From IMG/VR virus record IMGVR_UViG_3300032893_000013, positions 32,001 through 96,000 of that record: a DNA stretch of 64,000 bases. One strand, 5' to 3'. Numbering within the stretch: the first letter of the stretch is position 1; every line of letters starts with the position of its first letter. Under the pieces are notes generated by a model. The model was given only the letters and a program-made list of their open reading frames with translations, did no database searches and was not told where the DNA came from. Source of the stretch: a virus. Below, piece after piece: positions 4,284 to 39,479 of this stretch. The position numbers were made by a program, and so were the translations under genes.

Positions 4284-4300
4284 TCTGTCCTCCAAACAAA

Positions 4301-4372: not shown

Positions 4373-4381
4373 CCTAATCGC

Positions 4382-21479: not shown

Positions 21480-23345
21480 TTAGTCAATTTCCCAAAAAAA
21501 CGTCTTCGATTTGGATGATTTCACGCCGCCCGACGCGCCCTGCACCTTCTGTTCCTGGTTGATTTGTTGCGTCAGCCAGTTGTCATATTGGGCTTGTACT
21601 TTTTTCTTATACTCATCAATCGGCTCTTTCTGTTTCTGGGGATCATTCAGCGGATCGACGCCGGTATTGGCAGTCACAATCGGTTTCGAGCGGTGCCATC
21701 GGTTCTGGGCCGGGTAAGAAAGAGCGTCGTGGGAATCGTCGAATTCCTTGACCGGCTTGTCGGTCAGCTTGCCGGAAGTGTCGTATGCGAAATGGTATTT
21801 TTCAAAGTTGTTGACCAACGAATCCACGCGGCCTTTCAGACCGTAGAGTTTCGTTCCGCCCGCACTTGGGCACATTTTATCGCGTATGAGCGCAATGCCT
21901 TCGGTTGGATTTTTGTTGAAGTCATCGCCAACATTGACAACTTTTGAAATCATCTTGTTCACGGCGGGCGATGCAGTATCTGGATAGAGATGCGTGAAGC
22001 GGTACTTTTCCTTCATTTCCTGAACAATCTGCACACACTCTGGCGGTTCCAGCCCAGATTCCTCATACGAGCACATGATGTAAACGTTGTTGGAAGAGTC
22101 CTCAAAGATCACCACAATCGCAAACGGGTGAGTGTATCCATGGTCAACTCCAGCGTAGCGTTTCACGCCAGCCTTTATCATTTCGCGGATCAAATCATCT
22201 TCTGTAATGTCGAAGCCAGGATCTTTGCCGGAGAAAACTGTGTACATTTCACGCGGAGTCTTCTCAAACTCATTGCGCTTGAATTTTGGATAAACGAGAT
22301 CCTCTGCGGACGGTTGGAGGCTCATGCGCTGAGAAAGAAACCAATCGAAGGGTGAACTTTTGAAGTCGCTGATCGTTGCTTTGACCGGCTTGAGCGTTTT
22401 GCACAGTGATGTTTGTTTTTTCAGATCGCCCGAACAGAGAGCCTTGAGAGGGCAAGTGTAGCATCCTTTTTTGGCCTCTACGCGCTCAAACTTTCCTTTT
22501 TCAAGATCATCGAGCTTCTCATATTCAGCTTCAAGAATGGCTTTGTTCTCAAAAGGATTGACGTACATCGTCAACGGCTCAGTTCCAGAAATCGAATCGG
22601 GGCATCGTTTGGTGTTTTCGAGTGCTGTCCAGAACTTGAAGACGGCGCCTGTTTTGTGACGCTCTTCATACTCAGTCTCGATGATGGTGTAGCGCCCTTT
22701 TCTAGAGGAAATGCCGAATTTCACCCACGGACGGCCAGTGTCTGGCGTGTAAATCGGGATACCCGCAATAGACGGATATGCGGCCAACTTGTTCGGAGCC
22801 AGAGACGCCAACTCGTCAATTGAAACGACAGGTTGGTGAGGCCCTTGGACTGAGGCTTCGGTAATTGGCAAGATTTCCACATCTACTTCATTCCCGGCCA
22901 CAATGAACGTGGTCTTGGAAATCTTCGGAACATCTTTGAGGTAATCAGAAATGTATGGCTTTCCTACAAACTTTTTGAAATACGAATAGGCACGATTAGC
23001 TTGATCTTCCGTTCCTCCAAGGTGAACAATACCTCGCCCAAAATGTAAAGGAAGGAGGACGGCCAGAACAGCAGACGAAAGTGTTTTTTGTGAGCCTCGA
23101 CCGGCAATATAGAATGTTGAGAGCGGCTCATCGGTTTCCTCATTTGCGCAGAATTGGTAAATGTCCCAGACCATATCCAAAGGAGTGCTCGTCGCGTAGC
23201 GCGAAACAATGCAATCTGCCAGATCGACTTGAAGATAGTGCATGAGCCAATACTTCAAGTCTTCCTTGCGATTGAATCTCTGGCGGACCAGAGCTTTGCT
23301 AAATTCGTGACGCTCTTGAGGCGTCAGTTCGTTTATGTCACTCAT
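21480..23345 (-). CDS. terL: Terminase large subunit
   Basis: AGRGSQKT Walker A, SIDEL Walker B, GVDHGYTHP and DDSHDALSY RNase H-like nuclease motifs. Confidence 0.93.
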   Translation of the reverse strand: MSDINELTPQERHEFSKALVRQRFNRKEDLKYWLMHYLQVDLADCIVSRYATSTPLDMVWDIYQFCANEETDEPLSTFYIAGRGSQKTLSSAVLAVLLPLHFGRGIVHLGGTEDQANRAYSYFKKFVGKPYISDYLKDVPKISKTTFIVAGNEVDVEILPITEASVQGPHQPVVSIDELASLAPNKLAAYPSIAGIPIYTPDTGRPWVKFGISSRKGRYTIIETEYEERHKTGAVFKFWTALENTKRCPDSISGTEPLTMYVNPFENKAILEAEYEKLDDLEKGKFERVEAKKGCYTCPLKALCSGDLKKQTSLCKTLKPVKATISDFKSSPFDWFLSQRMSLQPSAEDLVYPKFKRNEFEKTPREMYTVFSGKDPGFDITEDDLIREMIKAGVKRYAGVDHGYTHPFAIVVIFEDSSNNVYIMCSYEESGLEPPECVQIVQEMKEKYRFTHLYPDTASPAVNKMISKVVNVGDDFNKNPTEGIALIRDKMCPSAGGTKLYGLKGRVDSLVNNFEKYHFAYDTSGKLTDKPVKEFDDSHDALSYPAQNRWHRSKPIVTANTGVDPLNDPQKQKEPIDEYKKKVQAQYDNWLTQQINQEQKVQGASGGVKSSKSKTFFWEID

Positions 23346-24024
23346 CGTCTTTCTTGTCTGTCTTCGCTTCGGATAATGCCAGCTTCTTCAGCATTTTGGA
23401 CTGAAGTTCAGGATTTATAATCGTAACCGGCTGATTTGACTCAACCACAACTTTGGACTCAGAGCGGATGTTGTGGTTGGACACTCGATCTTCTCCGGTG
23501 ATCTTTTGAATGGTTTCAACCATAGCCTTGTACGCCGTTGGAGTGTTGAGCCAGTGATCGGGCTTGTCTTCTTCTTTGCCAGTCTGAATGTATCGCTTCG
23601 CCTTTTCGTTGAAATCTTTGTGGGCCACGGACATTTGGTTCATGGTGAATTCAAGCATTTCCAGCTTCATCTTGGCCAATCGGGCGCCCATCTGAACCTG
23701 AAGATTGTAGACGTATTCGTCGCGGGCCTGATCCCACTTGTACTTTTTTCGCAAATAGAGAACATCGCCCTCTCGAACTTTCAGGTGAGAATTGACCTTG
23801 GCAATGTGCTCACATGAATAGCCTTCAAGGAAAAGTTGGTACATTTGCGCGGCCACACTAGGGGAAAGAGGAATGACGCCGGTCGTTTCGACTTTTTTCA
23901 GCGACTCCTGCTCTTTTGGAGTCAGAAGCGATGTGATGTCATCGGGTTTTGCTGCGGGAACCGGCTTATTGTCACCAATTTCCGTTACATCCCTAGTTGG
24001 ATTTTTGTTCGACGTGTCTTCCAT
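23338..24024 (-). CDS. Putative terminase small subunit
   Basis: HTH-like N-terminal region plus helices; overlaps the terL start. Confidence 0.55.
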   Translation of the reverse strand: MEDTSNKNPTRDVTEIGDNKPVPAAKPDDITSLLTPKEQESLKKVETTGVIPLSPSVAAQMYQLFLEGYSCEHIAKVNSHLKVREGDVLYLRKKYKWDQARDEYVYNLQVQMGARLAKMKLEMLEFTMNQMSVAHKDFNEKAKRYIQTGKEEDKPDHWLNTPTAYKAMVETIQKITGEDRVSNHNIRSESKVVVESNQPVTIINPELQSKMLKKLALSEAKTDKKDDE

Positions 24025-24412
24025 CTATCATCACCTTTATTTTTGTATCGTCGCCCCAAAGAAGCTCACGAGTCCAGGTATTCAAATTGATCGTTGCCAA
24101 CGCGACTTCATCGAGATACTTCTTCTTGGAAGTCAGCATGTTCAGCTTGATCGACCACTTATTGCGAGGCGACAACTTTTTCTCTTTATTGCGCTTCCAA
24201 TAACCGCTGGTGTAAATCTGATACGAGACGCTCTTGTTGTCCGCATCAATCTCAACCGTTCCGTCAAGTGCTGTCTTGCAGCACGCGACCAAATAGCACT
24301 CAAGCTGTCGAATGTGAAACTCATGTAGGATGCCATAATTCCTGAGAAGCAACTTTGCTATCAGGAGTTGGCGTTTCCAAGATTTGGTATTAGAGTCTGA
24401 AGTTTGGTCCAT
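23993..24412 (-). CDS. Hypothetical protein
   Basis: Fills the operon, overlapping both neighbours. Confidence 0.65.
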   Translation of the reverse strand: MDQTSDSNTKSWKRQLLIAKLLLRNYGILHEFHIRQLECYLVACCKTALDGTVEIDADNKSVSYQIYTSGYWKRNKEKKLSPRNKWSIKLNMLTSKKKYLDEVALATINLNTWTRELLWGDDTKIKVMIDGRHVEQKSN

Positions 24413-25419
24413 ATCTTAGCTTTCGTTTGATCGTCTGCATCGTAAACCTTGTGGACGTACTGATGCAATGATTTGTTGACGCTGCCGCCTTCTGCTTCGA
24501 TGTCGATTTTCTTTCTGATGTCTTTCCGTATGTCCGGTATGAACTTCACACGTTCGGTGAGATGACCATACAGGGCCAAGGTTTCTCGGTAAAACTCTTC
24601 TGATCCGTGAACACAAATCCGCACATCATCTTTCGGATTCCATTTACTTTCATCAACCGGCAAATGCTCTTTGCCTTCTTCGATGTCATAACGTATGAAC
24701 GACTTCACAAGGCCGTTGGTCGAATACTTCATCCACTGATCGTTTTGGTTATCGTAGACAAAAATCCCTTTGTTCTCGTTATATTCTGTTGGAAGGAGTG
24801 CTCTCGGAGTTCCTGGATAGTAAACATTACCAACACGCTGCTCCATATGGATGTGACCAGAAATAATTCTACGCTGGGGCAAACGACGTTGATCGACGCC
24901 TCCTGGAGCAAGGCTTTTATTTTCATAGTAAGCTCCCTCAACAGTTTGATGACAGACTAAAATTTTGTCTGCGTTTTGTTGGCAAGTTTGGACAAACTTC
25001 TCATTATCACCAATGAACGGAACCATGAAATAAGGACCGTCCACCATTCCCTTTTCAGTATCATCAACGACATGAACGGAAGGGATGCCATCGAATACAA
25101 GGCGAACAGCATTCTTCTCGACAGAGTGTGGAGAAGAGCCGTCATGATTGCCTGCCATCAAAAATGGCTGTCGCGCAGTTCGCTGGAAAATCTCAAGCAT
25201 TTTGTCACGCACAAAATATGCTGTCTCTTGGCGCACAACAGAGTGAGTATGGAAAATATCACCAAGGAAAATGATGCGATGGACAGAAGGATTTTCTTCT
25301 GCCGTCTTCGCAACTAAATCGAGTATCAGGCCCGTGTCTTCCATGTTAGACGGCATTGCGTGCAAGTCGCCGACAAAGAGAGTATAGCCATTGTTTGCAA
25401 AATCTAAATTATTGTCCAT
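24361..25419 (-). CDS. sbcD: Mre11/SbcD-like nuclease
   Basis: GDLH, LGDIFH, GNHD, SGHIH and YPGTP motifs. Confidence 0.88.
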   Translation of the reverse strand: MDNNLDFANNGYTLFVGDLHAMPSNMEDTGLILDLVAKTAEENPSVHRIIFLGDIFHTHSVVRQETAYFVRDKMLEIFQRTARQPFLMAGNHDGSSPHSVEKNAVRLVFDGIPSVHVVDDTEKGMVDGPYFMVPFIGDNEKFVQTCQQNADKILVCHQTVEGAYYENKSLAPGGVDQRRLPQRRIISGHIHMEQRVGNVYYPGTPRALLPTEYNENKGIFVYDNQNDQWMKYSTNGLVKSFIRYDIEEGKEHLPVDESKWNPKDDVRICVHGSEEFYRETLALYGHLTERVKFIPDIRKDIRKKIDIEAEGGSVNKSLHQYVHKVYDADDQTKAKIWTKLQTLIPNLGNANS

Positions 25420-25744
25420 TTGAACTCAACGGAAGTGCTTCAGGTCGGCCATCGGCTGTTTTGTTTTTTCTCGGGCGCTTGTGGAACACCGGAAGTTCTT
25501 CGTGCATCAAAATGAAGGTCACGTCACCAAGTTGCAACTTTTGAGTTGCCTGCGGCAAACGCATCACATCCGCACGGAAATACAAAATATCGCCCTTCTT
25601 AAAGCGTTCGGAGTCGAACAAAACTTCTGTCTCGATCAATTTCGTGACCGTCACGTCAGTCAAGTCAAGACCTTTCACGCGCTGACGTTCTTCGGTGTCT
25701 TTTTTGAACGGCGCAACGGCGACCTGCTTATTCATCGTTTCCAT
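25409..25744 (-). CDS. Candidate divergent GroES-like co-chaperonin
   Basis: Pattern TMNKQVAVAP / GLDL / FKKGDILYF / LGDVTFILMHEE parallels the GroES consensus; the phage encodes GroEL. Confidence 0.5.
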   Translation of the reverse strand: METMNKQVAVAPFKKDTEERQRVKGLDLTDVTVTKLIETEVLFDSERFKKGDILYFRADVMRLPQATQKLQLGDVTFILMHEELPVFHKRPRKNKTADGRPEALPLSSNGQ

Positions 25745-26744
25745 CAATTTTGATCCCTTTCAATCGTAAAACTTTTCTTTCAATCAAGGATAATACACCA
25801 AAACTTTTCTGAAGTACATCCAAAGTGTCATCGTCCTCAACGGCCTGGTATCCGTCCATGCCATCAGTCGGGGCTACGAACGTATCTACCAGTCGGGTGT
25901 CGGAGTCTTCCGAAATGGTATCATCAAGCGATGAGTAGGAAGTGGCGGCGAGTAAATCATTCACTTCTTCTTCAGCGATGTCCAAAGCCTGAGCCACATC
26001 TCTGTTTTGCATATTCGGATTTTTTTGTAACATTTTCCGAATCTGATAGAGTTTTTTCTTGGCGTGTTCACCAACCGTAGCAGATGAAATGGTCGATCCG
26101 TTGCTTATGAGATTGCTGATGATTCTTCCAATAGCCATAGCGTGGAAGCTGGAGGCTTCTTCGTCCATCACATATTTGTCCACAGCCACAACAAGTGCTT
26201 CATTGGCAAGTTGGATCAAGTCCTCAAACTCAGACGCTCCAGCGGCCCAAGACTTCTTGAAAATTCCAGCTTTATGAAGCGAAAGGTACAAATGCTTGTT
26301 GATGATTTCTTCGCGCAATTCCTTGATCTCTGAGAAAAGTTTACTCAAAGTCTCGCGGAACGTCGGCTTCTTGTCTTTCTTCTCTTCCTTGCCCTCAAGA
26401 CACTGGATGGCAAAAAGGCAGAATCGGTAATTTATCGGGACCGGATACATGAGCTTTGGCTGAACGTCTCGTATAGCCTTGTTCACCGTGTCGAGGTACG
26501 AATCCTGCCGAGCGCGGAAATATGACTTGGCAACTTTGATGCCGCCCTGCGACCGGGAAATTTTCTGAATGAATTCCAGATATACCTTGCGGCCCGCCGC
26601 CGTAGATTGTAACTTTTTCGCAAAAAGCTGTTCGCGCTCATAGAGTCTTCCGAAAACTTCCAGGATGTCCTCATCCGAAAGATTCTTGAGGGCACCGTTG
26701 ATGTCCTCCAGGTAGACTTTTACGAGATCCGCGAATTCGTTCAT
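25728..26744 (-). CDS. Phage sigma70-family RNA polymerase sigma factor
   Basis: FEDLIQLANEALVVAVDKY (region 2), VAQALDIAEEEV...SSLDD (region 3), LSLIERKVLRL (start of region 4, then ends). Confidence 0.88.
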   Translation of the reverse strand: MNEFADLVKVYLEDINGALKNLSDEDILEVFGRLYEREQLFAKKLQSTAAGRKVYLEFIQKISRSQGGIKVAKSYFRARQDSYLDTVNKAIRDVQPKLMYPVPINYRFCLFAIQCLEGKEEKKDKKPTFRETLSKLFSEIKELREEIINKHLYLSLHKAGIFKKSWAAGASEFEDLIQLANEALVVAVDKYVMDEEASSFHAMAIGRIISNLISNGSTISSATVGEHAKKKLYQIRKMLQKNPNMQNRDVAQALDIAEEEVNDLLAATSYSSLDDTISEDSDTRLVDTFVAPTDGMDGYQAVEDDDTLDVLQKSFGVLSLIERKVLRLKGIKIDGNDE

Positions 26745-28183
26745 GTTCTGTATTCCAAAATTTGGACCGGCCCAACTTCTTTGAGCAGCTTGATCCTGGC
26801 ATTACCATGCCTCTTGAGCATAGGGACGTTGTTGACACGGAAATCAACCAGCTTACACTCAGTCTTTCCGGTTTCTTTGTCGATGCGAGTGCTCCTGCCT
26901 ATGACGCCTTGCTTGAATTTCGTTTCTGCCTTGCCGCCCTGCCAATTTATGGTGAGACGAACGGGCTTGAAGTTCGTGCCAGTTGATACAGCCGAAGTTC
27001 CAACGACGCACATAATCTTGCCAGCGTTGAAGTCTTGACAAATCTGGTCCGTGTCGGCGCCGCCGCGTGCGTAGGCATAGACGGGACCGATTCGATTGCG
27101 GAGCGCCAGTTCTTGTTCGTGCTCATCAATCAGAATCAGCGTCGGAAGACCTTGAGCTAGAGCGTCGGGAACCATCTGAGCAATGATGTCAAGGATGAAG
27201 TTGTTGCGATAAAAGTGGCTTTGATTCATCTTCACGGTGTTGTTACTGTTGGTGTACGCCGAATATGAAGGAACGTCGAACACGAGGGTATTGAGCTTTG
27301 CCAGATAGCCCTTTTCTTGACCTTCTTGAATCGTCATCGAATAAACGTTCTTGCCAATAATTCCCTCAAGCAAAAGATCCTTGCCATCATTTCGTTCCTG
27401 AGTCGCAGAGAGAAACCAGCGGTACGGGCAGTGCCCGAGAACACTGTGGCAAAAATAGTTAAATTGATTTGCGGGAAGCGTGTGTGATTCATCGCTGATG
27501 AAAACTTGGTACTTCTTGAATTTGTCGAGCTTTTCTTCATCTTTCACGAGAGCCAAGCTCTTGCCGACACAAACGAGTATGTCCTTGCCAATTTCTTTTT
27601 TGCTTCCGCCAAACATGCCGACTTTGCGCTTGCCGAAATACCGACACAAGTCGTTGTACATTGACTTTGCCAAGCCAATCGTAGGAGTAGAGATGATCGT
27701 CGGCAGTCCCGTTGCCTTCACCAGCAAAACAGCGATGTGACTTTTCCCAAGTCCAGTCGCAATTTCGACGTGCGAATGCGGACTGTTCAGCATTCCCTCT
27801 ACCGCTTTGTCTTGATAGTCATAGGGATCAAAGTCTGGAATACGATCCCACGGAATCAACTGAAAGTCCGGGTAGTAAACTTGATTTTCAAATTCGACCT
27901 GAAACTCTCGTTGCAATCGAGACAAAACTCCGGGCAGCGTGTAATAGCCCTCTTCATCTTCGTAGAGAAGAGACTTGTACAGTTCTTCCTCCAGATCGGC
28001 AAGCATCTCGTGGAAGCGTTCTTTGCCGTACTGCTTGATGTAAAATGGATTTTTCTTCAGGCGACGGATTTTCTCATCTACCGTAGCGTCTCGGTACTTC
28101 AGAACATTCTGAAGAGTCATGACTTCAGCTTCAGAAGCGTTTTGGATTCTAAGTTTTACTGGCGTTTGAAGAATCAGTTTCAT
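26741..28183 (-). CDS. SF2 DNA helicase (UvsW-like)
   Basis: YDYQ Q-motif, ATGLGKS, SDESH, SAT, IGRSTR. Confidence 0.88.
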   Translation of the reverse strand: MKLILQTPVKLRIQNASEAEVMTLQNVLKYRDATVDEKIRRLKKNPFYIKQYGKERFHEMLADLEEELYKSLLYEDEEGYYTLPGVLSRLQREFQVEFENQVYYPDFQLIPWDRIPDFDPYDYQDKAVEGMLNSPHSHVEIATGLGKSHIAVLLVKATGLPTIISTPTIGLAKSMYNDLCRYFGKRKVGMFGGSKKEIGKDILVCVGKSLALVKDEEKLDKFKKYQVFISDESHTLPANQFNYFCHSVLGHCPYRWFLSATQERNDGKDLLLEGIIGKNVYSMTIQEGQEKGYLAKLNTLVFDVPSYSAYTNSNNTVKMNQSHFYRNNFILDIIAQMVPDALAQGLPTLILIDEHEQELALRNRIGPVYAYARGGADTDQICQDFNAGKIMCVVGTSAVSTGTNFKPVRLTINWQGGKAETKFKQGVIGRSTRIDKETGKTECKLVDFRVNNVPMLKRHGNARIKLLKEVGPVQILEYRT

Positions 28184-28370
28184 TTTCAGGTTCCCAAAAG
28201 TGGTCGGAAAATTTTTGTCCGGCGACAGAATATTCCGCTCGTGGAGGAATCATGCCTGCCTCTTGAATTGCTTTCAGAATTTCATTAGGCCAATGGTCAC
28301 TCAATAAAACGACATCATCCATCTGAAGCAAAACGTCTTTGATTTTTTTCAGCATTTCACTTCGCTTCAT
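28149..28370 (-). CDS. Hypothetical protein
   Basis: Overlaps the helicase start; phage-like small protein. Confidence 0.7.
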   Translation of the reverse strand: MKRSEMLKKIKDVLLQMDDVVLLSDHWPNEILKAIQEAGMIPPRAEYSVAGQKFSDHFWEPENETDSSNASKT

Positions 28371-28483
28371 CGAGACGTGACTCTCATCAAAAAAAGAAGG
28401 CCGAGGAGTATTGCAACTTCGGCGATTACTGGATTGGCTGATAGCAAAAAGTACGCCTGCCAGAGAAGATGTCTAATTTTCAT
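28367..28483 (-). CDS. Small membrane protein (about 38 aa, absent from the ORF track)
   Basis: MKIRHLLWQAYFLLSANPVIAEVAILLGLLFL...; GAGG RBS, follows the promoter. Confidence 0.5.
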   Translation of the reverse strand: MKIRHLLWQAYFLLSANPVIAEVAILLGLLFLMRVTSR

Positions 28484-28502
28484 GGGATAGCCTCTGTTGC
28501 CC

Positions 28503-28571
28503 ATACTAGCGTCTCAAAATGGGATTGTCAAGCGGAAATCAATTGACCTGTGTACTTTTTTGGGACATACT
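28503..28571. promoter_or_regulatory. Divergent sigma70 promoters at the main strand switch
   Basis: Minus: TTGACA-N17-TAGTAT. Plus: TTGACC-N17-CATACT, ending 6 nt before ATG 28578. Confidence 0.75.
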
Positions 28572-28577
28572 CAGGCA

Positions 28578-29480
28578 ATGTCGGCAAAAAAGCAGTTTGA
28601 AAAACTTCCATACCACATCCTGTTGAACCCCGATCTTTCGCCAGAATCCAAGCTACTCTTCCTGATCCTTAAGAAATATAAAGGCTTTGGGAAGGCGTTT
28701 GCCAAGATTGACACACTCGCGGAGCGTCTCAACTGCTCCAGGAACTGCATTGGATCATACGTCGATGAGCTTGTAAAGGCAAAGCTCCTGACTTACAAAA
28801 AAGGCGGCTTCAAAAAGGCCAATGAATACGAGCCTGACATGAATCCGGCGACGCGCTATGCCATGGTTTCCGTTGATTTTCTTCAAAGTAAAAATTTTAC
28901 ATCAACTGAAAAAATTATACTGATCTACCTGAAGGAGCGGGCCGGTCTTGAATTCGGCTACAGGCAGATGTCAAAGGACCTTGGACTTAGCCCCAAAACC
29001 TTCCAGCGGTTTTTCTCCGGCGACAAATGGCACCGATTCTTCGTGAGAAACGTCGGCCAGGGAAAGAACAAAAGTACATACACACTCACGAAAGAGGGGC
29101 ATTCAATCTCGGAAGGGGGTATGGACATTTTTGACGATGGTATGGACAAAACCGTGTCTCTACCTGTGGACAAAACTGTGCAAGGGGTATGGACAAATCT
29201 GACAGGGGGTATGGACAAAACCATGTCACCAATCAGACTTAATAAAAACAGACTTAGGAAATCAGACTTAAACATTCAAGTCTTTTCTATTCAGACATGG
29301 AATTGCAGTTGTGGATGCAAGACAGAAGACGAACATAAAAAATTCCAAGAAAAAATTAAAGCCGACTTCGATAGAGAAATTTCTCGTCCTCCCAAAAAGA
29401 CTATCCTCTCAGAACAACAAGAAGAAATGGCAAAAAAAATCAAAGAGTGGGAACAAACAGGCTTCTTTCCCAAAAAATAG
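28578..29480 (+). CDS. Putative replication initiator (tandem wHTH domains)
   Basis: Two HTH-like repeats (IDTLAERLNCSRNCI; YRQMSKDLGLSPKTF); contains an iteron array. Confidence 0.7.
   Translation: MSAKKQFEKLPYHILLNPDLSPESKLLFLILKKYKGFGKAFAKIDTLAERLNCSRNCIGSYVDELVKAKLLTYKKGGFKKANEYEPDMNPATRYAMVSVDFLQSKNFTSTEKIILIYLKERAGLEFGYRQMSKDLGLSPKTFQRFFSGDKWHRFFVRNVGQGKNKSTYTLTKEGHSISEGGMDIFDDGMDKTVSLPVDKTVQGVWTNLTGGMDKTMSPIRLNKNRLRKSDLNIQVFSIQTWNCSCGCKTEDEHKKFQEKIKADFDREISRPPKKTILSEQQEEMAKKIKEWEQTGFFPKK
29115..29271 (+). repeat. Iteron array plus AT-rich repeats (candidate replication origin)
   Basis: Five TGGACA cores at 29122, 29143, 29167, 29190 and 29212 (four as GGTATGGACA), then 3 x CAGACTTA. 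Confidence 0.8.
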
Positions 29481-29528
29481 TTGCTTCAAGGACCTTCAAA
29501 TTGGGATATTAACCTTGTAGGAGCTACT

Positions 29529-29732
29529 ATGGATTTGTTTACCCTTACGGAATTGAAAACTATTCACTCAGCACTCTGCCTGAGAGAAGCAACTCTTCTT
29601 CAGATCGCCGACACTGAACACACTGAAGTTCCACCGGAACAGAGATTTTTTGTTCCGCAACTTCGACAGGTTCGTCTTTTGAAAGAAAAAGTTGCATCTG
29701 AAATTCGCGTTTCCCTGAGAACGGAAGGATAA
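29529..29732 (+). CDS. Hypothetical protein
   Basis: AGGAG RBS, ATG 29529. Confidence 0.65.
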   Translation: MDLFTLTELKTIHSALCLREATLLQIADTEHTEVPPEQRFFVPQLRQVRLLKEKVASEIRVSLRTEG

Positions 29733-29735
29733 AAA

Positions 29736-31562
29736 ATGTACAGAGAACTTGTCAAAGCAAAGACAGCCGCAAAGAAAATTACCTACGGTGGAGGCGGCGG
29801 CGGAAACTCCGACGATCTCAAAACTGTAGTTTTAGACACTGTAAGGAAAGCCAGCCAGTTGGTGGGCAGTACCCTTGGACCTAATGGGCGCGTGGTTTTA
29901 ATCGAAAGGCAAGAGAGCCTTCCCCCTTTTACAACGAAGGATGGGATCACCGTTTTCAATTCCATGGCGTTTGCTAACCCAACTGCGCAGGCTGTTTTAG
30001 AAGCTGCGCGGGATAGTAGTAGCAAAACGAACGTAGAGGCGGGAGATGGGACCACTACGGCTACTATCCTTGCGGAAGCTCTTATCCGCTTAGGTTTTGA
30101 ATACCTTGAAAAAAATCCAAAGTTGAGCGTTCAGAAGGTCATGCGCGAAATGGAAAGAACTTTCCGCGACCTTGTGGTTCCCGCGATCAAAAGTTTGTCA
30201 GTAAAGATTACAGAGCAAAACAGCGACGATCTACTTCGTAAAGTGGCTATGGTAGCGACGAATAACGATGAGGAGATGTCAGATGCAGTCATTAGAGCTT
30301 TTGGAACTGTTGGGCACGGTGGAAACATTACCATCGACGAAGGCCCAGGAGCATCGGGATACCAAGTCGAAAAGATTGAAGGTCTTCCTATCGCCCGTGG
30401 ATTTGAAGATTCGTGCGGTCGCTTTTTTGAAGAGTTCATCAATGACAAAGCCAATTATCGTGTCATTCTCGAAAAACCGCATTTCATTCTCTACAACGGA
30501 AAGCTCAACGAACCTTCTGCCTTGATTCCGATTCTTCAGAAAGTGGCGACTGCGACCGGCTTGACCGGCGAAGAGATCCGCGCCTCAAAATTTTCCCCGA
30601 ATATCATCGTTGTGGCGCACCATTTCTCAGAAGCCGTACTCGCGTTCATGATGAATAACTTCAAGAATGCCGAGGCTTTGAATCTTTTTCCTCTTAAGAC
30701 TCCGCTTACACAACAAACGAACAGTCCATTTCATTTTTTACACGATCTATCGGCGTTTACCGGCGCGATTGTTTTCGATCCGGTGAGCAGACCGCTCGAA
30801 AGTGCAGAACTTGAGGATCTAGGTGTAGATGAGATGCGTCTGTTCGAGTCTTATCGCTACAAATCCCTCCTTTTAGGAGAACCGCCAGAACCTATCCTGA
30901 TTGCCCGAGTCGAAGAACTTGAGCAACAGGCTAAACAGCCGGAAAGTGAGCTTGATGGCGAAATTATTCGTGAGCGCATGTCCCTTTTGACGGGAGGCGT
31001 TGCCCGAGTGCGCGTTCTTGGCTCATCTGAGTCCGAACTGAAGGAAAAGAAACACCGCGTTGAAGATGCGGTCATGGCAATCAAAGGCGCGCTCAAAGAA
31101 GGAGTGTTGCCCGGATGTTGCAAAACTCTTCTCGTCCTTTCGTCAGCCATCGCTCAAAATCCGACAACATCCGACGCCGTGAAACAAATCATGGCTCGCG
31201 CCTTGGCCGAACCGTTCAGTAGAATTTTCACAAATGGTGGAGCTACTACCGATGAAATCCAAGCGATCTATGCAAAAATGATGGATGTAAAAAATCCTTT
31301 CTTTTACACATACGACGCTTTGAGCGGAAAAACCGGCGATGCCATCGAGTTGGGAATCGTTGACTCTGCATCCGCCGTCCTGATGGCAATTAAAAACAGC
31401 CTGGCGGTCGCTAAGATGCTTATGGGACTGTCTGGCATTGTTGTGTTCCAACGCGATCTCGAAACGGAAATTGACGCCTCTAGGACGTTCAAAGCGGAAA
31501 ATCAGGCAATGGCCGAAGCGATCCGCGACTCTAACCAAGAACATTGGGAACCGCCAATTTGA
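29736..31562 (+). CDS. groEL: Phage chaperonin (GroEL-like)
   Basis: STLGPNGR, TKDGITV, GDGTTTAT, RVEDAV and GIVD motifs; no GGM tail. Confidence 0.95.
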   Translation: MYRELVKAKTAAKKITYGGGGGGNSDDLKTVVLDTVRKASQLVGSTLGPNGRVVLIERQESLPPFTTKDGITVFNSMAFANPTAQAVLEAARDSSSKTNVEAGDGTTTATILAEALIRLGFEYLEKNPKLSVQKVMREMERTFRDLVVPAIKSLSVKITEQNSDDLLRKVAMVATNNDEEMSDAVIRAFGTVGHGGNITIDEGPGASGYQVEKIEGLPIARGFEDSCGRFFEEFINDKANYRVILEKPHFILYNGKLNEPSALIPILQKVATATGLTGEEIRASKFSPNIIVVAHHFSEAVLAFMMNNFKNAEALNLFPLKTPLTQQTNSPFHFLHDLSAFTGAIVFDPVSRPLESAELEDLGVDEMRLFESYRYKSLLLGEPPEPILIARVEELEQQAKQPESELDGEIIRERMSLLTGGVARVRVLGSSESELKEKKHRVEDAVMAIKGALKEGVLPGCCKTLLVLSSAIAQNPTTSDAVKQIMARALAEPFSRIFTNGGATTDEIQAIYAKMMDVKNPFFYTYDALSGKTGDAIELGIVDSASAVLMAIKNSLAVAKMLMGLSGIVVFQRDLETEIDASRTFKAENQAMAEAIRDSNQEHWEPPI

Positions 31563-31570
31563 GGTAGACC

Positions 31571-33976
31571 ATGATTGTGCTGTATAAATGTAATCTTTGC
31601 TCAAATTCGATCAAGAAATATTACTCGCAGGGGCAGAAACAAGCTCCGTTCATTCAGTGCGAGTGCAAAGGTGTCATGGAAAAACAATTACCCGAATTCA
31701 GCACGTCTAGCTTTGAAACCGTAGACAATGGTAACATGGTGAAGAAAGTGGAACTTCGTAAGGGCGCGGTCGAAAAGGCACGCGCAAAGGGCGATGACTT
31801 CATCCAAAAAATGGAAGATCGCAATAGGGTAATAAGAATGAGACTTGATCTTGCGTCACTAAACATCAGCGCGCTCAAGAATTTCGCCGCCAATCAGCAT
31901 GTGGACTTACCTTCCTATGGCGTAACCGCAATTGTTGGGAAGAATGAAGATGATGGCGGAAGCAACGGAACCGGCAAATCATCCTTCTCGATTGCCGCAC
32001 TCGTCAATCTTTTTGGACCAAAATACGTCGGGGCCTCGATTAAGGATCTTGAAAACCGCTACCTGAAAGATTCAGCCAGAGTCGTTGGCCGATACTATCT
32101 TGACGGTAAAGAGCTTCTGGTTGACAGAACGCTTGGCGGACGCCTGTGGTTCATGTTCGATGGTAAGCCGAACCGTGATGGCAAAGCCGAAGAAGTTCAA
32201 GTTCAGTTGAATCAAATCTTGGGCATCACTCCAGAACAATTGGATTTTTTGAGCAACAAATCTCAAGGGCAATTCGGCGGATTCCTTCTCATGAAGGACG
32301 CGGATAAAAAGGACTTCTTGAGTTCTTTCTTCGATGTGACGGACATCGAAAAAGCCAAAGATAAAGCCGATCTCGAACTTTCCGTCAAAACCAAAGAATT
32401 GAATGCTGCAACTGGCAAACTTCAATATGTCGAGGGCGAAGTCAAGCGTCTGGCCGATCTCGTCAATTCCGCAAAAATTGAAGTTGAGCGCGTCAACACA
32501 AGCGACTTCCGCAAGACCATTGACGCAATGAAACTTCAGCTTTCTGACCTTGAAGCGAACAAATCTGCCCTAGAATCTCTCAAGAACAAAAGCGAATCTG
32601 AATTTGCAGAATATGCCATGGCCATAGCCGAAGTTAAATCGGCCTATGAGGCTTCCATGCTGAAGCGGGCCAACATTGAAGCCCAAATCGCCGAGCAAAA
32701 TGCCAGAATGGAAGAGACGAAGCTCAAGATCGAAGAGCTTAACCTGAAAATTTACAATACGCCATCGACGCCAAAAGAATTGCTGGATCAAAAGGCTCAG
32801 ATAGAAGCCGTCATCGCTGAGTTGAATCGTCGCAAAAATAGCGTCGCTCAACAGCAATACGCTCATTCCTTGTCCTTGCAGCGCCTTGTGAATTTGCAGA
32901 CTTCTCTGGAACAGGCCGAGAATGCGAAATGCTCCTACTGTGAATCTCCATTGAGTGACGAAAAGAAGGCGGCAACTAAGGCTAAAATTCAAGCTGACAT
33001 AGACGCTACCAGAGCTTCGGACAGTCTGATCCTGGAAAAGATTGCTGCCGAAACTGTCAACGAAGATGATGTCAAACAGGCACAGGTCTTCAAAGACACT
33101 ATCCTTCAAAAAATTGCAGACTTTTCTGCGGCTAACAATCCGGAAACCTTCAAAAGAGAATCAGCATTAGTGCGCGAGACTCAAAAGGTCATCACGTCTA
33201 CAATCCTTCAGCTTCGTATGGCTCTTGATATGGAATCTGGAGCCGTAAAGCAAGCTATTCAGAAAGTTCGTGACGGAATCAACAGCGCGCTAACCAAAAT
33301 CAATTACGACATCTACAATGCGCAGCTTGGAATTCAGGCAAAAGAAGCTGAAATCGCTGACAAGCTCAAAGAATTGAGTCGCGCCGAAGCCGAACATAAA
33401 CGAGTCTGTGAAGAATTCGCTCAAGTTTTTCGCTCGAAGGAAGCTCTTGATGAGGAAGTCACTACTCTAACGCACGTCACCAAAGTCACGTCGAAGGCTG
33501 GATTCATCGGTTACATTTTTGACAGTATGCTTGAGAATTTCAACTCCGAAATCAATGAAAATCTCAAGATGATTCCGAACGCCAGAAAGTTCAGCCTTCA
33601 ATTCTCATCAGACAGGTTGGTAAAAACTACAGGTGCTGTCAACAAGGCAATCACGTACCAAATCTTCAGCGGAACGGAGAAAGTAGATTTTGAGACTTTA
33701 TCTGGCGGTGAAAAACTCAGCGTGATCGCTGCGGTAGATGAATCTCTTGATACGGTCCTGAGTAAACGTCTTGGCGTATCTATTGGATGGAAATTCTTGG
33801 ACGAACAATTCTACTGGATTGATGAAAACAGCAAGGAGTCCATCTTGAATTTCTACAAAGCCAAGTCAAGCAAGAGAGCCTATTTCATCGTAGATCACGC
33901 ATCTGAATTCAATGCTGCGTTTGACAGTAAAATCACCATCGTTCGCTCAAACAATGTGGCGCGGTTTGCGTCATGA
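31571..33976 (+). CDS. sbcC: SbcC/Rad50-like ATPase with in-frame N-terminal Zn-ribbon
   Basis: GSNGTGKSS Walker A, CSYC Zn hook, LSGGE signature, FLDE, DH; N-terminal YKCNLC...CEC; possible internal ATG at 31838. Confidence 0.88.
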   Translation: MIVLYKCNLCSNSIKKYYSQGQKQAPFIQCECKGVMEKQLPEFSTSSFETVDNGNMVKKVELRKGAVEKARAKGDDFIQKMEDRNRVIRMRLDLASLNISALKNFAANQHVDLPSYGVTAIVGKNEDDGGSNGTGKSSFSIAALVNLFGPKYVGASIKDLENRYLKDSARVVGRYYLDGKELLVDRTLGGRLWFMFDGKPNRDGKAEEVQVQLNQILGITPEQLDFLSNKSQGQFGGFLLMKDADKKDFLSSFFDVTDIEKAKDKADLELSVKTKELNAATGKLQYVEGEVKRLADLVNSAKIEVERVNTSDFRKTIDAMKLQLSDLEANKSALESLKNKSESEFAEYAMAIAEVKSAYEASMLKRANIEAQIAEQNARMEETKLKIEELNLKIYNTPSTPKELLDQKAQIEAVIAELNRRKNSVAQQQYAHSLSLQRLVNLQTSLEQAENAKCSYCESPLSDEKKAATKAKIQADIDATRASDSLILEKIAAETVNEDDVKQAQVFKDTILQKIADFSAANNPETFKRESALVRETQKVITSTILQLRMALDMESGAVKQAIQKVRDGINSALTKINYDIYNAQLGIQAKEAEIADKLKELSRAEAEHKRVCEEFAQVFRSKEALDEEVTTLTHVTKVTSKAGFIGYIFDSMLENFNSEINENLKMIPNARKFSLQFSSDRLVKTTGAVNKAITYQIFSGTEKVDFETLSGGEKLSVIAAVDESLDTVLSKRLGVSIGWKFLDEQFYWIDENSKESILNFYKAKSSKRAYFIVDHASEFNAAFDSKITIVRSNNVARFAS

Positions 33977-34350
33977 TAAAGGCCGATCTGGAATCAGCGT
34001 TGGCCCTATGGGACGCTCTTGAGGAAGAGGCGGAAATCTACGTCCCAGTCGTTCTCGACAGCACCAGCAACGGGAAATTTTTCGTTGAGCGCGGAACACT
34101 ACCGGCTAATAAAGATCGAATGCTGGTGAGAGTGTTCGTAAACAGAGACGAAGCCGATTCATATAAACTTTTCAAGAAGGGCAATCGCCTCACTCTTGCC
34201 ACAACGACGGTAGGACACCTTCTCGCTTCACTCGAAAGAAACTTGACAACTATTGACGGTAAAATAGAATGTGTGCTATCTACTTTGGATATGAATGGAA
34301 ATTTCCACATCCTCGAAACTTTGTGGTCGAACACTAACCGAAACTCATAG
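33973..34350 (+). CDS. Hypothetical protein
   Basis: ATGA coupling. Confidence 0.7.
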   Translation: MIKADLESALALWDALEEEAEIYVPVVLDSTSNGKFFVERGTLPANKDRMLVRVFVNRDEADSYKLFKKGNRLTLATTTVGHLLASLERNLTTIDGKIECVLSTLDMNGNFHILETLWSNTNRNS

Positions 34351-34358
34351 GAGAAAAA

Positions 34359-34646
34359 ATGGACGCACGCGAACTTGATGAAAAGATTCAGGACTTGAAA
34401 GATAAGTTGGACGAAAATTTTGTTAAGGAAGTTAAGGCTTCTAGTCCAGAAGCTCTCAAAGAAAAAATCGTTCAATTGTCGAAAAGAGTTCAGGAAATTG
34501 ATGACGAGAAGGCTAAAGACGGCAAACTGAAAACTCTTCGCACCCAAAAGTCTGACCTTGAGGGCGGATACCGGGATCGCAAGAAAGAAGTGGATCGTCA
34601 GCGTCAATACGTTATGCTCACTTTGATGGAGCGCGGTAATCTATAA
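34359..34646 (+). CDS. Hypothetical coiled-coil protein
   Basis: AGGAG RBS; TAATG coupling. Confidence 0.78.
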   Translation: MDARELDEKIQDLKDKLDENFVKEVKASSPEALKEKIVQLSKRVQEIDDEKAKDGKLKTLRTQKSDLEGGYRDRKKEVDRQRQYVMLTLMERGNL

Positions 34647-34990
34647 TGTCCGAACAGCCCGCAGAAAAGCCTAAGAAGAAACGTAAGCGCAAGCCGAAAC
34701 CTTCTGGGCTGAGAAAATATTGGCCACATCTTACGCTCAAACAAGCCGAAGCGGAACGGCAAAAACTGTCAGATGCTCAAGGAGCCAAATGTGCCATATG
34801 CGGGAAGGACGAATCTTCGTTCGTTAACCGATTAGCGGTCGATCATAACCATGCGACCGGGAAAGTACGCGGACTTCTGTGTTATCGCTGCAACAAGTTC
34901 CTGGTTGGAAGAAACACTATTGAGTCGGCCACAAAAATCTTGAATTACTTACAGACCTATGATATACCAGCCGCTCAGGAGGAAACATGA
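34646..34990 (+). CDS. Endonuclease VII-family resolvase
   Basis: QxxKCAIC...LAVDHNHATGKVRGLLCYRCN. Confidence 0.92.
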   Translation: MSEQPAEKPKKKRKRKPKPSGLRKYWPHLTLKQAEAERQKLSDAQGAKCAICGKDESSFVNRLAVDHNHATGKVRGLLCYRCNKFLVGRNTIESATKILNYLQTYDIPAAQEET

Positions 34991-35499
34991 AAGTTAGAGT
35001 ACAAAAATTGAATCCCGAAGCTGTGATTCCTAAATACGCCAAGCCTGGCGATGCCGGTCTTGATCTCGTGGCAGTCTCTGTTGAGGTTGACGCAAATCTT
35101 AGGCAGGTGACGTATGGAACTGGTCTTGCGGTAGAAATTCCGCAAGGGTTTGTTGGATTGATCTTCCCGCGCTCTTCGATCCGCAACAACACTCTGTCTC
35201 TCTCAAATGCGGTAGGAGTGATTGATAGCGGCTATCGCGGTGAAATCAAAGCCGTTTTCAACATAGTTGACGGCAGAACTACAACGCAGAAAGAAACGCG
35301 CCCTTTCTGGGATGATTCTGGATCTTTTGAAGGCTACCGGGACAAGCATTTGAAGGTTCCGATAGAAAAAATTTATGGCGTCGGCGACAAAATCGCCCAA
35401 CTTATGATCGTTCCATATCCTCAAATCGAATTGGTTCAGGCCGAGTCTCTTTCTGAGACAGAGCGCGGAGCCGGTGGATTTGGCAGTACCGGAAGATAG
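34987..35499 (+). CDS. dut: Trimeric dUTPase
   Basis: DAGLDL, PRSS, GVIDSGYRGE, IAQL, RGAGGFGSTG. Confidence 0.97.
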   Translation: MKVRVQKLNPEAVIPKYAKPGDAGLDLVAVSVEVDANLRQVTYGTGLAVEIPQGFVGLIFPRSSIRNNTLSLSNAVGVIDSGYRGEIKAVFNIVDGRTTTQKETRPFWDDSGSFEGYRDKHLKVPIEKIYGVGDKIAQLMIVPYPQIELVQAESLSETERGAGGFGSTGR

Positions 35500-35501
35500 G
35501 T

Positions 35502-35530
35502 TGATTTTCTCAAAAAGATACGGTAAGATC
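35502..35530 (+). promoter_or_regulatory. sigma70-type promoter
   Basis: TTGATT-N17-TAAGAT. Confidence 0.55.
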
Positions 35531-35555
35531 GTATCAATTTGAGCTAGGAGTAAGT

Positions 35556-36458
35556 ATGTACGACTTTGACGAAGAAGCTGGCGAGTACGATGGTAACGCC
35601 GAAGAGGTTCTCGAAAACCTCGAAGATGGACTTCCTGCTGATTTTCAGAATGGGGAAGAGTACGCCGCCGATGTCATGAACAGCGCCATGCAGCGTATTG
35701 AAGAGGCGAATCTGTTCAAGACTCTTGTCAATCAAGACATCTTCGCTCCGAACTCTGCACGTCCGGAAATTCTAAACTCTGTCAACGCAAAGATCCGACA
35801 ATTTGCGATTGAGCAGCTTGAGACTCTTCTCGGCATACGCTCACCCAAGTCACAAAGCGCCGACCTTCCGTTTGATGATGGAGAAGTCGCCCAACTGAAA
35901 ATGCTTCTCGGCAACTTCTCTGAAGTAGAAGTTCGCGTTTTGAAAATGCTCATTGGGAAAGTCCTGAAGACGGATTCAAACTTCGTCGCTCAAAGTACGC
36001 CAGAACGTAAACCGGAACTTCAGCAAATCCAAGCTCCGACTCCGGTCGTGAAGCAAATTGGAACCCCGGCTCAACCGCTTAAAAAGGCCCAACCCAAAAG
36101 ACAGCCTGCGCGCCAAACTCAGCCGCATCCAACTCCGGCTCAGCCTGCACCTGGACAAAAGCGCAAACGTCAAAAGCCAGGAACTGCAACGCCCAATACC
36201 ACTACCAAAGTGAAGCCAATGCCGAGCGCAGAGCAGCTTATCCCGGTATTGGGAGCAGCTAATCAGGGAGTCGTTGCCTCACGCGCAACGAAGGGATCTC
36301 AAGGCGTTTCTGAAGGTGAAATGAATAGAGGTATAATGTCAGTCGGCGATGTCGTTCAAAGATTGACTGGTGGAAATATCATTGCTACTGACAATTCAAA
36401 TCCGGCAGATGCCGCAATGGCAGATGGTGGAGGGGTAGATGTCAACGGTAGATTCTAA
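35556..36458 (+). CDS. Hypothetical protein with Pro/Gln-rich linker
   Basis: AGGAG RBS; long ORF. Confidence 0.8.
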   Translation: MYDFDEEAGEYDGNAEEVLENLEDGLPADFQNGEEYAADVMNSAMQRIEEANLFKTLVNQDIFAPNSARPEILNSVNAKIRQFAIEQLETLLGIRSPKSQSADLPFDDGEVAQLKMLLGNFSEVEVRVLKMLIGKVLKTDSNFVAQSTPERKPELQQIQAPTPVVKQIGTPAQPLKKAQPKRQPARQTQPHPTPAQPAPGQKRKRQKPGTATPNTTTKVKPMPSAEQLIPVLGAANQGVVASRATKGSQGVSEGEMNRGIMSVGDVVQRLTGGNIIATDNSNPADAAMADGGGVDVNGRF

Positions 36459-36471
36459 TAAGGAGAAAAAA

Positions 36472-37107
36472 GTGGAAACTAATACTCAACAACCGAAAAC
36501 TCCGGCTCCCGCTCCGGCACCAAAAGCCCCTGCAAAGCCGCAAGAACCTCAAAAAGTGAAAAGCTACACCGAACGCTTCGTGGACATGGAAAACATGATT
36601 GTTCGCATGAGCTACGCCATCAACTTTCAGGCCAAAACCATCGAAGAGTTGATGAAGCAAATTCAGGTCATGAATGAAGAGCTTGATCGCTTGACTCTTG
36701 TTCGCAAGAGCGTCAATGCCATCATGAAAATTTCCGAAACCGAAGAAACCAGCACCCATATGTTCTCACTGGAAAGAGTTGCTGAAAAAGTTGAGCAGCT
36801 TGAACTCCAGGCCGCTAAAGAACAACTTGCTAAAGACCTTCAAGATGGCGTTGTAAAACAAGCCGATACCGTCGAAAATGACCTTACGGTTATTGAATTC
36901 GAGTCAATTCCCGAAGGCTCCTACGGCCTTATCAGCGTCGGAACCACAGTTCCCGAACTGAAAAAGGAATTGATTGGAAAGAAAGTCGGAGATGTTGTGC
37001 AAAAGGTGAAGATTACCGGCATCTACGCATACGTCCTCGAAACACCCAAAACCGAAGGTACAGATGGCAAAACTCAAGAAAACCCCCAAAGTCCAGCAGC
37101 GCAGTAA
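36472..37107 (+). CDS. Hypothetical coiled-coil protein (GreA C-terminal-like end)
   Basis: AGGAG RBS, GTG 36472; ELIGKKVGDVV. Confidence 0.7.
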   Translation: METNTQQPKTPAPAPAPKAPAKPQEPQKVKSYTERFVDMENMIVRMSYAINFQAKTIEELMKQIQVMNEELDRLTLVRKSVNAIMKISETEETSTHMFSLERVAEKVEQLELQAAKEQLAKDLQDGVVKQADTVENDLTVIEFESIPEGSYGLISVGTTVPELKKELIGKKVGDVVQKVKITGIYAYVLETPKTEGTDGKTQENPQSPAAQ

Positions 37108-38716: not shown

Positions 38717-38723
38717 ATCGTAG

Positions 38724-39074
38724 ATGAAGCGAATAAAAGGCCACGGTTGGGGCCATGCGATGAAAAAACACAATAGGCACCATCAAAGACGCAGCGGTGA
38801 TGAGTCTGAGGAAAACCTACGGGGAAGACTCAGAGAAGCCGAAAAAGCACTTGAAAGGGAACGGCGCTATAGTCGCTCCTTGGAAAAGAGACTCGCCCAA
38901 AAGCGAGATGTGAAAGAAAGAACTGAACATGAGCCGAAGCCCGAACCGATACTGGATTGTCCAAACTGCGGTAAGGGGCGCTTGATTGAGCAAAAAATTT
39001 ACAGCCCTACGAAGGAAATCATCTGGGCTGTCTGTAACAATGAGGCGTGCAAACACCGTGAAAGAAGAAAATGA
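38724..39074 (+). CDS. Coiled-coil plus Zn-ribbon protein
   Basis: CPNC...CNNEAC. Confidence 0.7.
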   Translation: MKRIKGHGWGHAMKKHNRHHQRRSGDESEENLRGRLREAEKALERERRYSRSLEKRLAQKRDVKERTEHEPKPEPILDCPNCGKGRLIEQKIYSPTKEIIWAVCNNEACKHRERRK

Positions 39075-39077
39075 CAA

Positions 39078-39479
39078 ATGTCTTGGCTACCAACCGACGT
39101 GGAATATCGCATCAAGGTCATCGAGAAAGAGATCGAGAGAGCTTATGCGCAGATCCCCGTCTTTGAACTTGGCATAAGAGAGGAACAGAAAGACCTGGAC
39201 CTTCAATGGATTTATCGTCAGACTTTGATAGAAGCGATTGCCTTTCTCAAAGCTCAAGGCCCCACGGCAGTTTCTCTTTCCGAATACAAGAATATACTGG
39301 TAGACTTAGCCATAACCGACCAGACGATCACTCAAAAGCAAACGGCCATCACGAACATAACCAAGGCTTTAGGTGAGAAAAAACGAGAGATTGAGCACAT
39401 GAAGAACAGCATAGTAAGACTTACAATGACCAACAGGCGAGGCGTACTGCTCGACTTTAGGAAGAAAAATGAGCGTTGA
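39078..39479 (+). CDS. Hypothetical coiled-coil protein
   Basis: In operon. Confidence 0.7.
   Translation: MSWLPTDVEYRIKVIEKEIERAYAQIPVFELGIREEQKDLDLQWIYRQTLIEAIAFLKAQGPTAVSLSEYKNILVDLAITDQTITQKQTAITNITKALGEKKREIEHMKNSIVRLTMTNRRGVLLDFRKKNER

Follow-up and report, generated by a model that had tools for sequence, protein, structure and literature searches.

Where does replication begin in a large, uncultured phage that encodes its own replicative helicase, primase, and polymerase? We examined this question in a 64,000-nucleotide stretch of a virus record of IMG/VR (IMGVR_UViG_3300032893_000013, positions 32,001 to 96,000; hereafter the window, whose numbering is used throughout). Its plus-strand gene at 28578–29480 encodes a 300-residue protein, P0001, and carries a row of direct repeats within its coding sequence. 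The original prediction, made from the letters of the sequence, had read this as a lambda-O-style intragenic iteron origin. On the evidence presented here, positions 29116–29290 are quite probably a theta-type replication origin, or one of several, located where the gene for its own initiator encodes a linker and bound by the product of that gene. The elements concerned are as follows.

28578–29480, plus strand: initiator gene, product P0001, 300 residues (Pfam HTH_36 and PHROG matches)
28578–29102 (codons 1–175), plus strand: two consecutive winged-helix domains, putative iteron-binding module (AlphaFold2 model)
29116–29227, plus strand: five direct repeats of about 22 bp, putative iterons (repeat, motif-matrix, and codon analyses)
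29228–29290, plus strand: AT-rich tract with three copies of CAGACTTA, putative DNA-unwinding element (base composition and repeat count)
29298–29480 (codons 241–300), plus strand: C-terminal part with a C-x-C-x-C cluster and two predicted helices (conserved in the homologue P0002)

Repeats and AT-rich tract inside the initiator gene

The TGGACA cores of the five repeats begin at 29122, 29143, 29167, 29190, and 29212, at intervals of 21, 24, 23, and 22 bp, and flanks common to the copies extend the unit to about 22 bases. Copies 2 and 5 contain GACA-N6-TGTC dyads. The array spans codons 180–217 of 300, between the modeled DNA-binding module and the C-terminal part. A 10-mer of the array, counted with at most one mismatch, has 13 occurrences in the window, where 3.97 would be expected, and none of 100 shuffles reached 13. 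When a weight matrix was built from the five copies, the same five were its top five matches on both strands of the complete 108-kb record (17.1–23.7 bits); the next best site scored 15.6 bits, and the matrix revealed no second iteron cluster on either strand of the record. A scan for thrice-repeated 8-mers placed the strongest direct-repeat cluster of the record in the interval around 29101, with a collagen-like repeat and a heptapeptide repeat as the runners-up.

The copies of CAGACTTA that follow the array start at 29234, 29249, and 29263 (intervals of 15 and 14 bp); the whole window holds five, compared with 0.99 expected. The tract from 29228 to 29290 is 71% AT, and the 60 bp beginning at 29231 reach 73% AT, the 99.9th percentile of the record. 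The five cores with their spacing, the two palindromic copies, the three AT-rich repeats behind them, and one repeat out of frame had all been listed in the original prediction, and each was located exactly as described.

That prediction had further held that selection acts on the DNA and not on the protein. Copies 1, 2, 3, and 5 are in the same codon phase, giving MD, MD, VD, and MD, whereas copy 4 is offset by one base and gives VWT. The third CAGACTTA copy also lies in another frame. At equivalent positions, the choice among synonymous codons is the same in every in-frame copy (chance of about 7e-5 given the codon usage of the phage), and a rare glycine codon, GGG (7% of glycine codons), returns at the same repeat position. 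The control was a peptide repeat, EESSMKK, present six times in P0024 (window 14120–14241), in which the peptide is kept and synonymous sites vary. Because copies stand out of frame and synonymous codons are identical, in contrast to the synonymous variation of the control, the repeats in the P0001 gene are, as judged from sequence, constrained as DNA and not as peptide, and at that level the earlier claim holds.

Both of the other repeat-bearing genes have features of their own. P0024 is an acidic 298-residue protein (13465–14361, minus strand) with six in-frame EESSMKK motifs and is probably scaffolding-like. A 300-residue open reading frame (ORF) at 9566–10468 on the plus strand has repeats of 9/27-bp period at 9784–10133; these look like a collagen-like G-X-Y pattern, perhaps of a fiber protein.

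Additional features lie within the gene and just upstream of it.

28867–28926, no strand assigned: AT-richest 60-bp window of the record (76.7% AT; 108-kb scan), inside the initiator gene
28543–28571, plus strand: promoter-like site TTGACC-17 nt-CATACT, just upstream of the initiator start (consensus scan, weak)

The first of these is situated 190 bp upstream of the repeats and holds an 11-nt inverted repeat, so that the two AT-richest spots of the neighborhood are both within the initiator gene. A divergent promoter-like site occupies 28531–28503 on the minus strand. The promoter consensus scan is weak, with four sites against 2.0 expected. Operator copies near the promoter in the style of RepE were also considered; the inverted look-alikes at 28497–28518 and 28600–28614 do not reach 9 bits with the motif matrix and were rejected.

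Predicted structure of P0001 and its homologue

Family matches place P0001 among phage initiators. Residues 20–71 match Pfam HTH_36 (PF13730) with 53.8 bits against a cutoff of 25, and PHROG 270 and 8102, "replication initiation protein," are matched with E values of 3e-7 to 5e-7; PHROG 186, a "DnaD-like" helicase loader family, is matched too. Neither Rep_3 nor the lambda O protein family gave a Pfam match at E values up to 0.01, and the PHROG matches are described as "replication initiation protein" and not as O-like. A sequence search of the PDB with the initiator returned nothing relevant.

Residues 1–180 were modeled with AlphaFold2 from a 23-sequence alignment. The model is confident (predicted local distance difference test [pLDDT] of 91.7, predicted template modeling score [pTM] of 0.85) and consists of two winged-helix units, in agreement with the tandem winged helix-turn-helix domains that had been predicted. 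Taken alone, the second winged helix falls below the HTH_36 threshold (15.2 bits, E value 0.019). Foldseek against the PDB ranked the N-terminal domains of staphylococcal plasmid RepA initiators best and RepE54 next. With VIA, matches to both domains were limited to RepE54 and related entries (Z of about 10.2 over 168 residues, root-mean-square deviation 3.9), and single-domain regulators tied with RepE54 in Z. When VIA was run without Foldseek on 48,161 representatives, the sole two-domain match was R6K pi with iteron DNA (Z of 8.8, 169 residues). The RepE and pi alignments correspond to 7%–8% sequence identity with P0001. Among predicted viral structures, the nearest are tandem helix-turn-helix proteins of uncultured viruses (template modeling [TM] score 0.77), and some of these neighbors bear the names replication initiator, protein O, and replisome organizer. 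The predicted two-domain DNA-binding module thus resembles the plasmid iteron initiators RepE and pi more closely than the single-domain lambda O.

A full-length AlphaFold model, based on two sequences, was poor (pLDDT 38.5) and was set aside for fold claims. The two helices of the C-terminal part appear in this low-confidence model only, and the part has no Pfam match. It may recruit the helicase or the replisome.

A search of 5.8 billion proteins yielded a single full-length homologue, P0002, which is 63% identical to P0001, is encoded on a 102-kb Logan contig, and agrees with P0001 in its start site. With P0001 or its alignment as query, no relatives were found in IMG/VR or the JGI metagenomes. 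Using phmmer against 1.84 billion representatives, we obtained only matches to the N-terminal winged helix, at E values of 1e-6 or weaker; among the same representatives the linker (residues 176–240) and the C-terminal 60 residues have no relative beyond P0002. At the protein level, P0002 retains the 21/24/23/22 register of the repeats with zero indels. Its linker is otherwise poorly conserved, with conservation focused on the repeat cores, and the peptide motif G-x-D-K returns.

The repeats of P0002 were compared by back-translation from the protein, not on its DNA. By this approach, one DNA word can still be common to all five copies. The M-to-I changes in copies 1 and 2 and the W-to-Y change in the out-of-frame copy 4 hit the same repeat base. 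These changes would be compatible with one concerted base change, which, we stress, is not proof.

Genome context and a variable slot

The virus record is linear, comprises 108,069 bases, and has an estimated completeness of about 67%. Up to about window position 28,400 most genes are on the minus strand and beyond it most are on the plus strand, and the initiator gene is the first plus-strand gene past this divergent strand switch, as originally described. The right arm encodes GroEL, SbcC, endonuclease VII, dUTPase, a DnaE-like polymerase, a UvsX/RecA-like recombinase, a DnaG-type primase, and a DnaB-like helicase. The expectation that the phage would carry its own DnaB, DnaG, and DnaE is borne out by PHROG matches to all three types downstream of the initiator.

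26741–28183, minus strand: DEAD/ResIII-type helicase gene, conserved left anchor of the variable slot described below (family matches)
39699–43178, plus strand: DnaE-like DNA polymerase III alpha (PHROG 405, E value 1.7e-193)
46969–47964, plus strand: DnaG-type primase (PHROG 47, E value 2e-38)
48632–50173, plus strand: DnaB-like replicative helicase (PHROG 19, E value 6e-48)

A further gene amid the replication genes encodes a 550-residue protein (window 37064–38716) that matches PHROG 1745, "DNA transfer protein," with an E value of 7e-103.

The phage had been described as SPO1-like, a label that our searches do not bear out. When the region and P0001 were searched by blastn and tblastn in 50,697 phage records, neither a DNA nor a protein match was obtained. 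The closest phage match of DnaE is Myxococcus phage Mx1 (28.9% identity), and the best DnaE matches listed come from Myxococcus, Streptomyces, and Geobacillus phages at 27%–29% identity.

We used the neighboring genes as queries and obtained ten related contigs. In tblastx comparisons, synteny with two of these (L001 and L002) is unbroken at window 21666–28184 and 29817–39642 and is missing over the intervening 1.55 kb, where the relatives hold a different gene. In this phage, the interval contains a 73-residue ORF, an intergenic region, the initiator gene, and a 67-residue ORF.

28184–29736, no strand assigned: variable slot between the helicase and GroEL genes, with the initiator cassette (tblastx synteny break)
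28149–28370, minus strand: 73-residue ORF at the left cassette edge, which may not be a real gene (no family match)
29529–29732, plus strand: 67-residue ORF directly downstream of the initiator, cassette-specific (matches neither Pfam nor PHROG; missing in L001 and L002)

A phmmer search with P0001 against the ORFs of the new loci found nothing, and a profile derived from the alignment picked up L013 and L019. Over the matched stretches, their helicases are 59% (L013) and 44% (L019) identical to that of this phage. The L019 contig is a fragment, and in its initiator region it reads as L013 does. The genes concerned in L013 and in two other contigs are given below.

L013:17–745, minus strand: initiator gene, oriented divergently to the helicase gene, for a 242-residue HTH_36 protein (matches to "replication initiation" and "O-like" PHROGs)
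L013:735–1193, minus strand: GIY-YIG homing-endonuclease-like gene between the initiator and helicase genes (side finding)
L014:5216–5917: slot gene, 233 residues, in a 154-kb contig; repeats at 5679–5779
L016:4508–6001: slot gene, 497 residues, with an N-terminal part like the L014 protein (28% identity, E value 1e-6)

The L013 initiator gene contains four copies of a 13-mer, GGAAWTTCCGACA, at L013 452–355 with intervals of 37, 24, and 24 bases. The first copy is out of frame. The 13-mer is near-palindromic, and three copies are perfect. Fifty-three bases beyond the repeats, at about 301–262, is a 40-base tract of 92.5% AT. The protein has one winged helix and can be aligned with P0001 over the first 70–90 residues only (32% identity). 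The L014 gene harbors all six GGGACGG/CCGTCCC sites of its 13.4-kb locus within 100 bases, four of them in tandem at a 12-bp period (peptide GDGL four times). In L016, the repeats are intergenic: at least eight copies of RTCATYNAG stand at 4281–4480, upstream of the 497-residue gene and beside a 60-mer of 88% AT. The L014 and L016 products are putative DNA-binding proteins, each with a repeat array of its own.

In L001, L002, L017, L018, and L020, an orphan protein of 417–465 residues replaces the initiator cassette. The orphan-cassette regions of L001 (6429–7995; protein of 417 residues) and L002 (6331–7992; 448 residues) contain intergenic inverted repeats, with 51-nt arms 130 nt apart in L001 and perfect 24-nt arms 173 nt apart in L002. 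The L001 protein has no homologue beyond itself among 5.8 billion proteins and no Pfam or PHROG match; its neighbors in a protein language-model comparison (Atlas) are tyrosine recombinases, which is a weak lead only. The orphan region could be an invertible segment or a different type of origin. Near the GroEL genes of nine more distant loci (L003–L011), there was no HTH_36-like gene.

A private DNA-binding gene with a private repeat array and an AT-rich tract, either next to the gene or within it, recurs at one genome position with different sequences, as expected of an exchangeable origin module. That initiator and repeats change together between related phages is supported at this level of evidence. 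The original prediction had asked whether homologues carry co-varying iterons; L013, with a different initiator and different repeats in the same slot, answers this, and the P0002 back-translation fits without proving it. We propose that initiator and repeats form an exchangeable cassette and that relatives hold other sets in the same slot. The contents fall into four types, namely the tandem winged-helix initiator, the single HTH_36 O-like protein, the 233/497-residue family, and the orphans of 417–465 residues with long inverted repeats, and each of the first three has a private direct-repeat array. More tentatively, and with somewhat less than even confidence, the gap between helicase and GroEL may be an exchange point for origin cassettes, where at least four unrelated protein types stand before one conserved phage replisome. 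The GIY-YIG gene beside the L013 initiator possibly drives this exchange. If such an exchange point is real, the phage helicase would be loaded through an interface independent of initiator identity, and origins would be swapped like immunity regions, perhaps aided by homing endonucleases.

Proposed origin function, alternatives, and known systems

We can outline how the locus might work as an origin. One P0001 molecule would bind each repeat of about 22 bp, in the manner of RepE and pi monomers on iterons, with one winged helix reading the TGGACA half and the other the TGTC/TGAC half about 11 bp farther on. The two-turn spacing and the phased A-tracts suggest that the five molecules would sit on one face of the helix and bend or wrap the DNA, which would stress the adjacent AT-rich tract. 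The three CAGACTTA repeats would act as the unwinding element. The C-terminal part, possibly with the 67-residue downstream product, may then bring the phage DnaB-like helicase to the opened DNA, and the phage primase and DnaE-like polymerase would take over. Since the phage encodes a UvsX/RecA-like recombinase, SbcCD, and endonuclease VII, later replication is probably recombination dependent.

Several observations weigh against an origin at this site. Support throughout consists of sequence and predicted structure, and the covariation argument for P0002 is one of back-translation only, in which copy 4 is forced to have at least one core mismatch. No helicase loader was recognized among the right-arm genes or near DnaB. 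Several close relatives, namely L001, L002, L017, L018, and L020, are without a recognizable initiator in the slot, so this type of origin is not essential to the lineage. Base composition does not help. At third codon positions, the GC and AT skews of both arms change sign with gene strand and not with genome arm, and the cumulative AT-skew minimum falls at the site as the mark of the strand switch only. Because the skews track transcription and gene strand, they give no independent support, and with the record about 67% complete the GC-skew check that had been suggested cannot decide either way. The record being linear and incomplete, another origin may sit in the absent third.

The same features can be explained in other ways. 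The repeats could be operators, with P0001 a regulator (or self-regulating initiator) of its own gene and the downstream early genes, and with replication starting elsewhere or via R-loops or recombination. HTH_36 and winged helices are common in regulators, whose single-domain structures tie in Z with Rep; moreover, the gene is at a divergent promoter region, several relatives are without a P0001-type protein in the slot, and the phage has a full recombination toolkit. However, operators normally overlap promoters and do not lie in the middle of the coding sequence of their own regulator, and no extra copy of the motif stands at any promoter in the 108 kb. L013 and L016 also pair repeats with an AT-rich tract, in other sequences, the family matches point to replication initiators, and the two-domain geometry matches RepE and pi only. 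We consider operators unlikely. A plasmid-type maintenance replicon, for a low-copy plasmid prophage state like that of P1 (RepA plus iterons) and not for lytic replication, would account for the likeness of the module to RepE and pi and for the best Foldseek matches being plasmid RepA domains, and iteron arrays are a classic plasmid copy-control device (PMC4980987). It is nevertheless quite unlikely: no match to ParA-type, ParB, or tyrosine-integrase families was found in the 108 kb (though the record lacks a third of the genome), the cassette heads an early replication and recombination operon, Rep_3 is not matched, and the same fold is widespread in phage initiators.

Host DnaA boxes that mimic a chromosomal origin, with the host initiator and not the phage protein acting on them, are a very improbable explanation of the array. 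In the DnaA-box consensus, TTATNCACA, the C at position 8 is invariant. Copy 3, read on the minus strand (29165–29173), is TTGTCCACA, one mismatch from the consensus, and the remaining four copies differ from TTGTCCACA by one more base; T replaces the C at position 8 in four of the five. Boxes with short AT-rich repeats do resemble the layout of oriC (PMC4285127). Box-like 9-mers are only slightly enriched, though, with 16 in the window against 10 expected; the change inferred in P0002 would take the core further from a DnaA box, and the L013, L014, and L016 arrays are unlike DnaA boxes. We give least credence, and very little, to a G-M-D-K-T peptide repeat selected at the protein level or to a neutral recent duplication in a floppy linker. 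Copies are out of frame in both the window and L013, synonymous codons are identical, the rare one included, which is the opposite of the genuine repeat in P0024, and a spacing of 21–24 bp is not a constant number of codons. These points outweigh the in-frame reading of four copies, the return of G-x-D-K in P0002, and the three perfect L013 copies, which could be a recent duplication.

An origin bound by P0001 is accordingly the explanation that we favor. It would provide a concrete candidate origin and initiator for an uncultured large-phage lineage that is without relatives among the deposited phage records, of value for annotation and replication studies of that lineage. The most interesting by-product is the modular slot: the ten-contig comparison suggests that the origin position is modular even in large phages with their own DnaB-type helicase, primase, and DnaE-type polymerase. 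The current understanding of how iteron origins function is unchanged.

Precedents exist for each part of the design. In lambda, the iterons of the origin and their AT-rich tract occupy the middle part of gene O (PMC7466680); in SPP1, gene 38 harbors oriL, which combines repeated boxes with an unwinding element (PMC5737612). Monomers of plasmid Rep proteins bind 19–22-bp iterons via two winged helices (PMC4980987; PDB 1REP, 2NRA). The "unusual hybrid" of the original prediction is not supported, as origins with iterons inside the initiator gene are commonplace (PMC7466680, PMC5737612) and DnaE-like polymerases are present in 1396 phage records.

As in lambda and the lambdoid Stx phages P27 and 933W (PMC7466680), the candidate origin sits centrally within the initiator gene, with direct repeats and an AT-rich tract to one side. 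The repeats likewise fall in the linker between the N-terminal DNA-binding and C-terminal parts, contain A-tracts, and alter the length of the protein by their number. In contrast to lambda O, P0001 has no Pfam lambda O match and contains a pair of winged helices in each chain where lambda O has one; most of the repeats are asymmetric, a dyad being present in two of five; and no P-like loader gene is recognizable, whereas DnaB, DnaG, and DnaE are the phage's own and not, as in lambda, those of the host. Of the lambda-O-style origin first predicted, then, the repeats in the linker, the AT-rich tract, and the initiator-like protein stand, and membership in the lambda O family does not, the module being RepE/pi-like. 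The virulent phage SPP1 also has its origin in the initiator gene, with boxes bound by the gene's own product (G38P) and an adjoining AT-rich element, and it too supplies a DnaB-type helicase. G38P belongs to another Pfam family (PMC5737612), however, and SPP1 has a loader, G39P, uses host primase and polymerases, and carries a second origin copy, oriR, whereas no second array was found here in 108 kb. An N-terminal HTH_36 winged helix is shared with the phage proteins of HTH_36 and PHROG 270, 345, and 186 that are named "replication initiation," "O-like," and "DnaD-like," among them the L013 protein. L013 repeats the layout of P0001 (binding domain, intragenic repeats, AT-rich tract, and C-terminal part) in the same genome slot but differs in its one winged helix and its near-palindromic 13-mer with a 24-bp period, features that bring it closer to lambda.

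The resemblance to RepE of F and pi of R6K lies in the mutual arrangement of the tandem winged helices, in direct repeats of about 22 bp on one helix face, and in an adjacent AT-rich unwinding element with short repeats. It does not extend to sequence, given the low identity and the absence of a Pfam Rep_3 match. Plasmid iterons are located outside the rep gene with DnaA boxes nearby, whereas those described here are intragenic and belong to a phage in which no partition genes were found. On the predicted structure, the candidate origin would unite the phage layout, with the origin within the gene, and a binding module like that of plasmid Rep proteins; a two-domain iteron binder of the RepE/pi type could, in that case, combine with an origin-in-initiator-gene layout of the lambda and SPP1 type.

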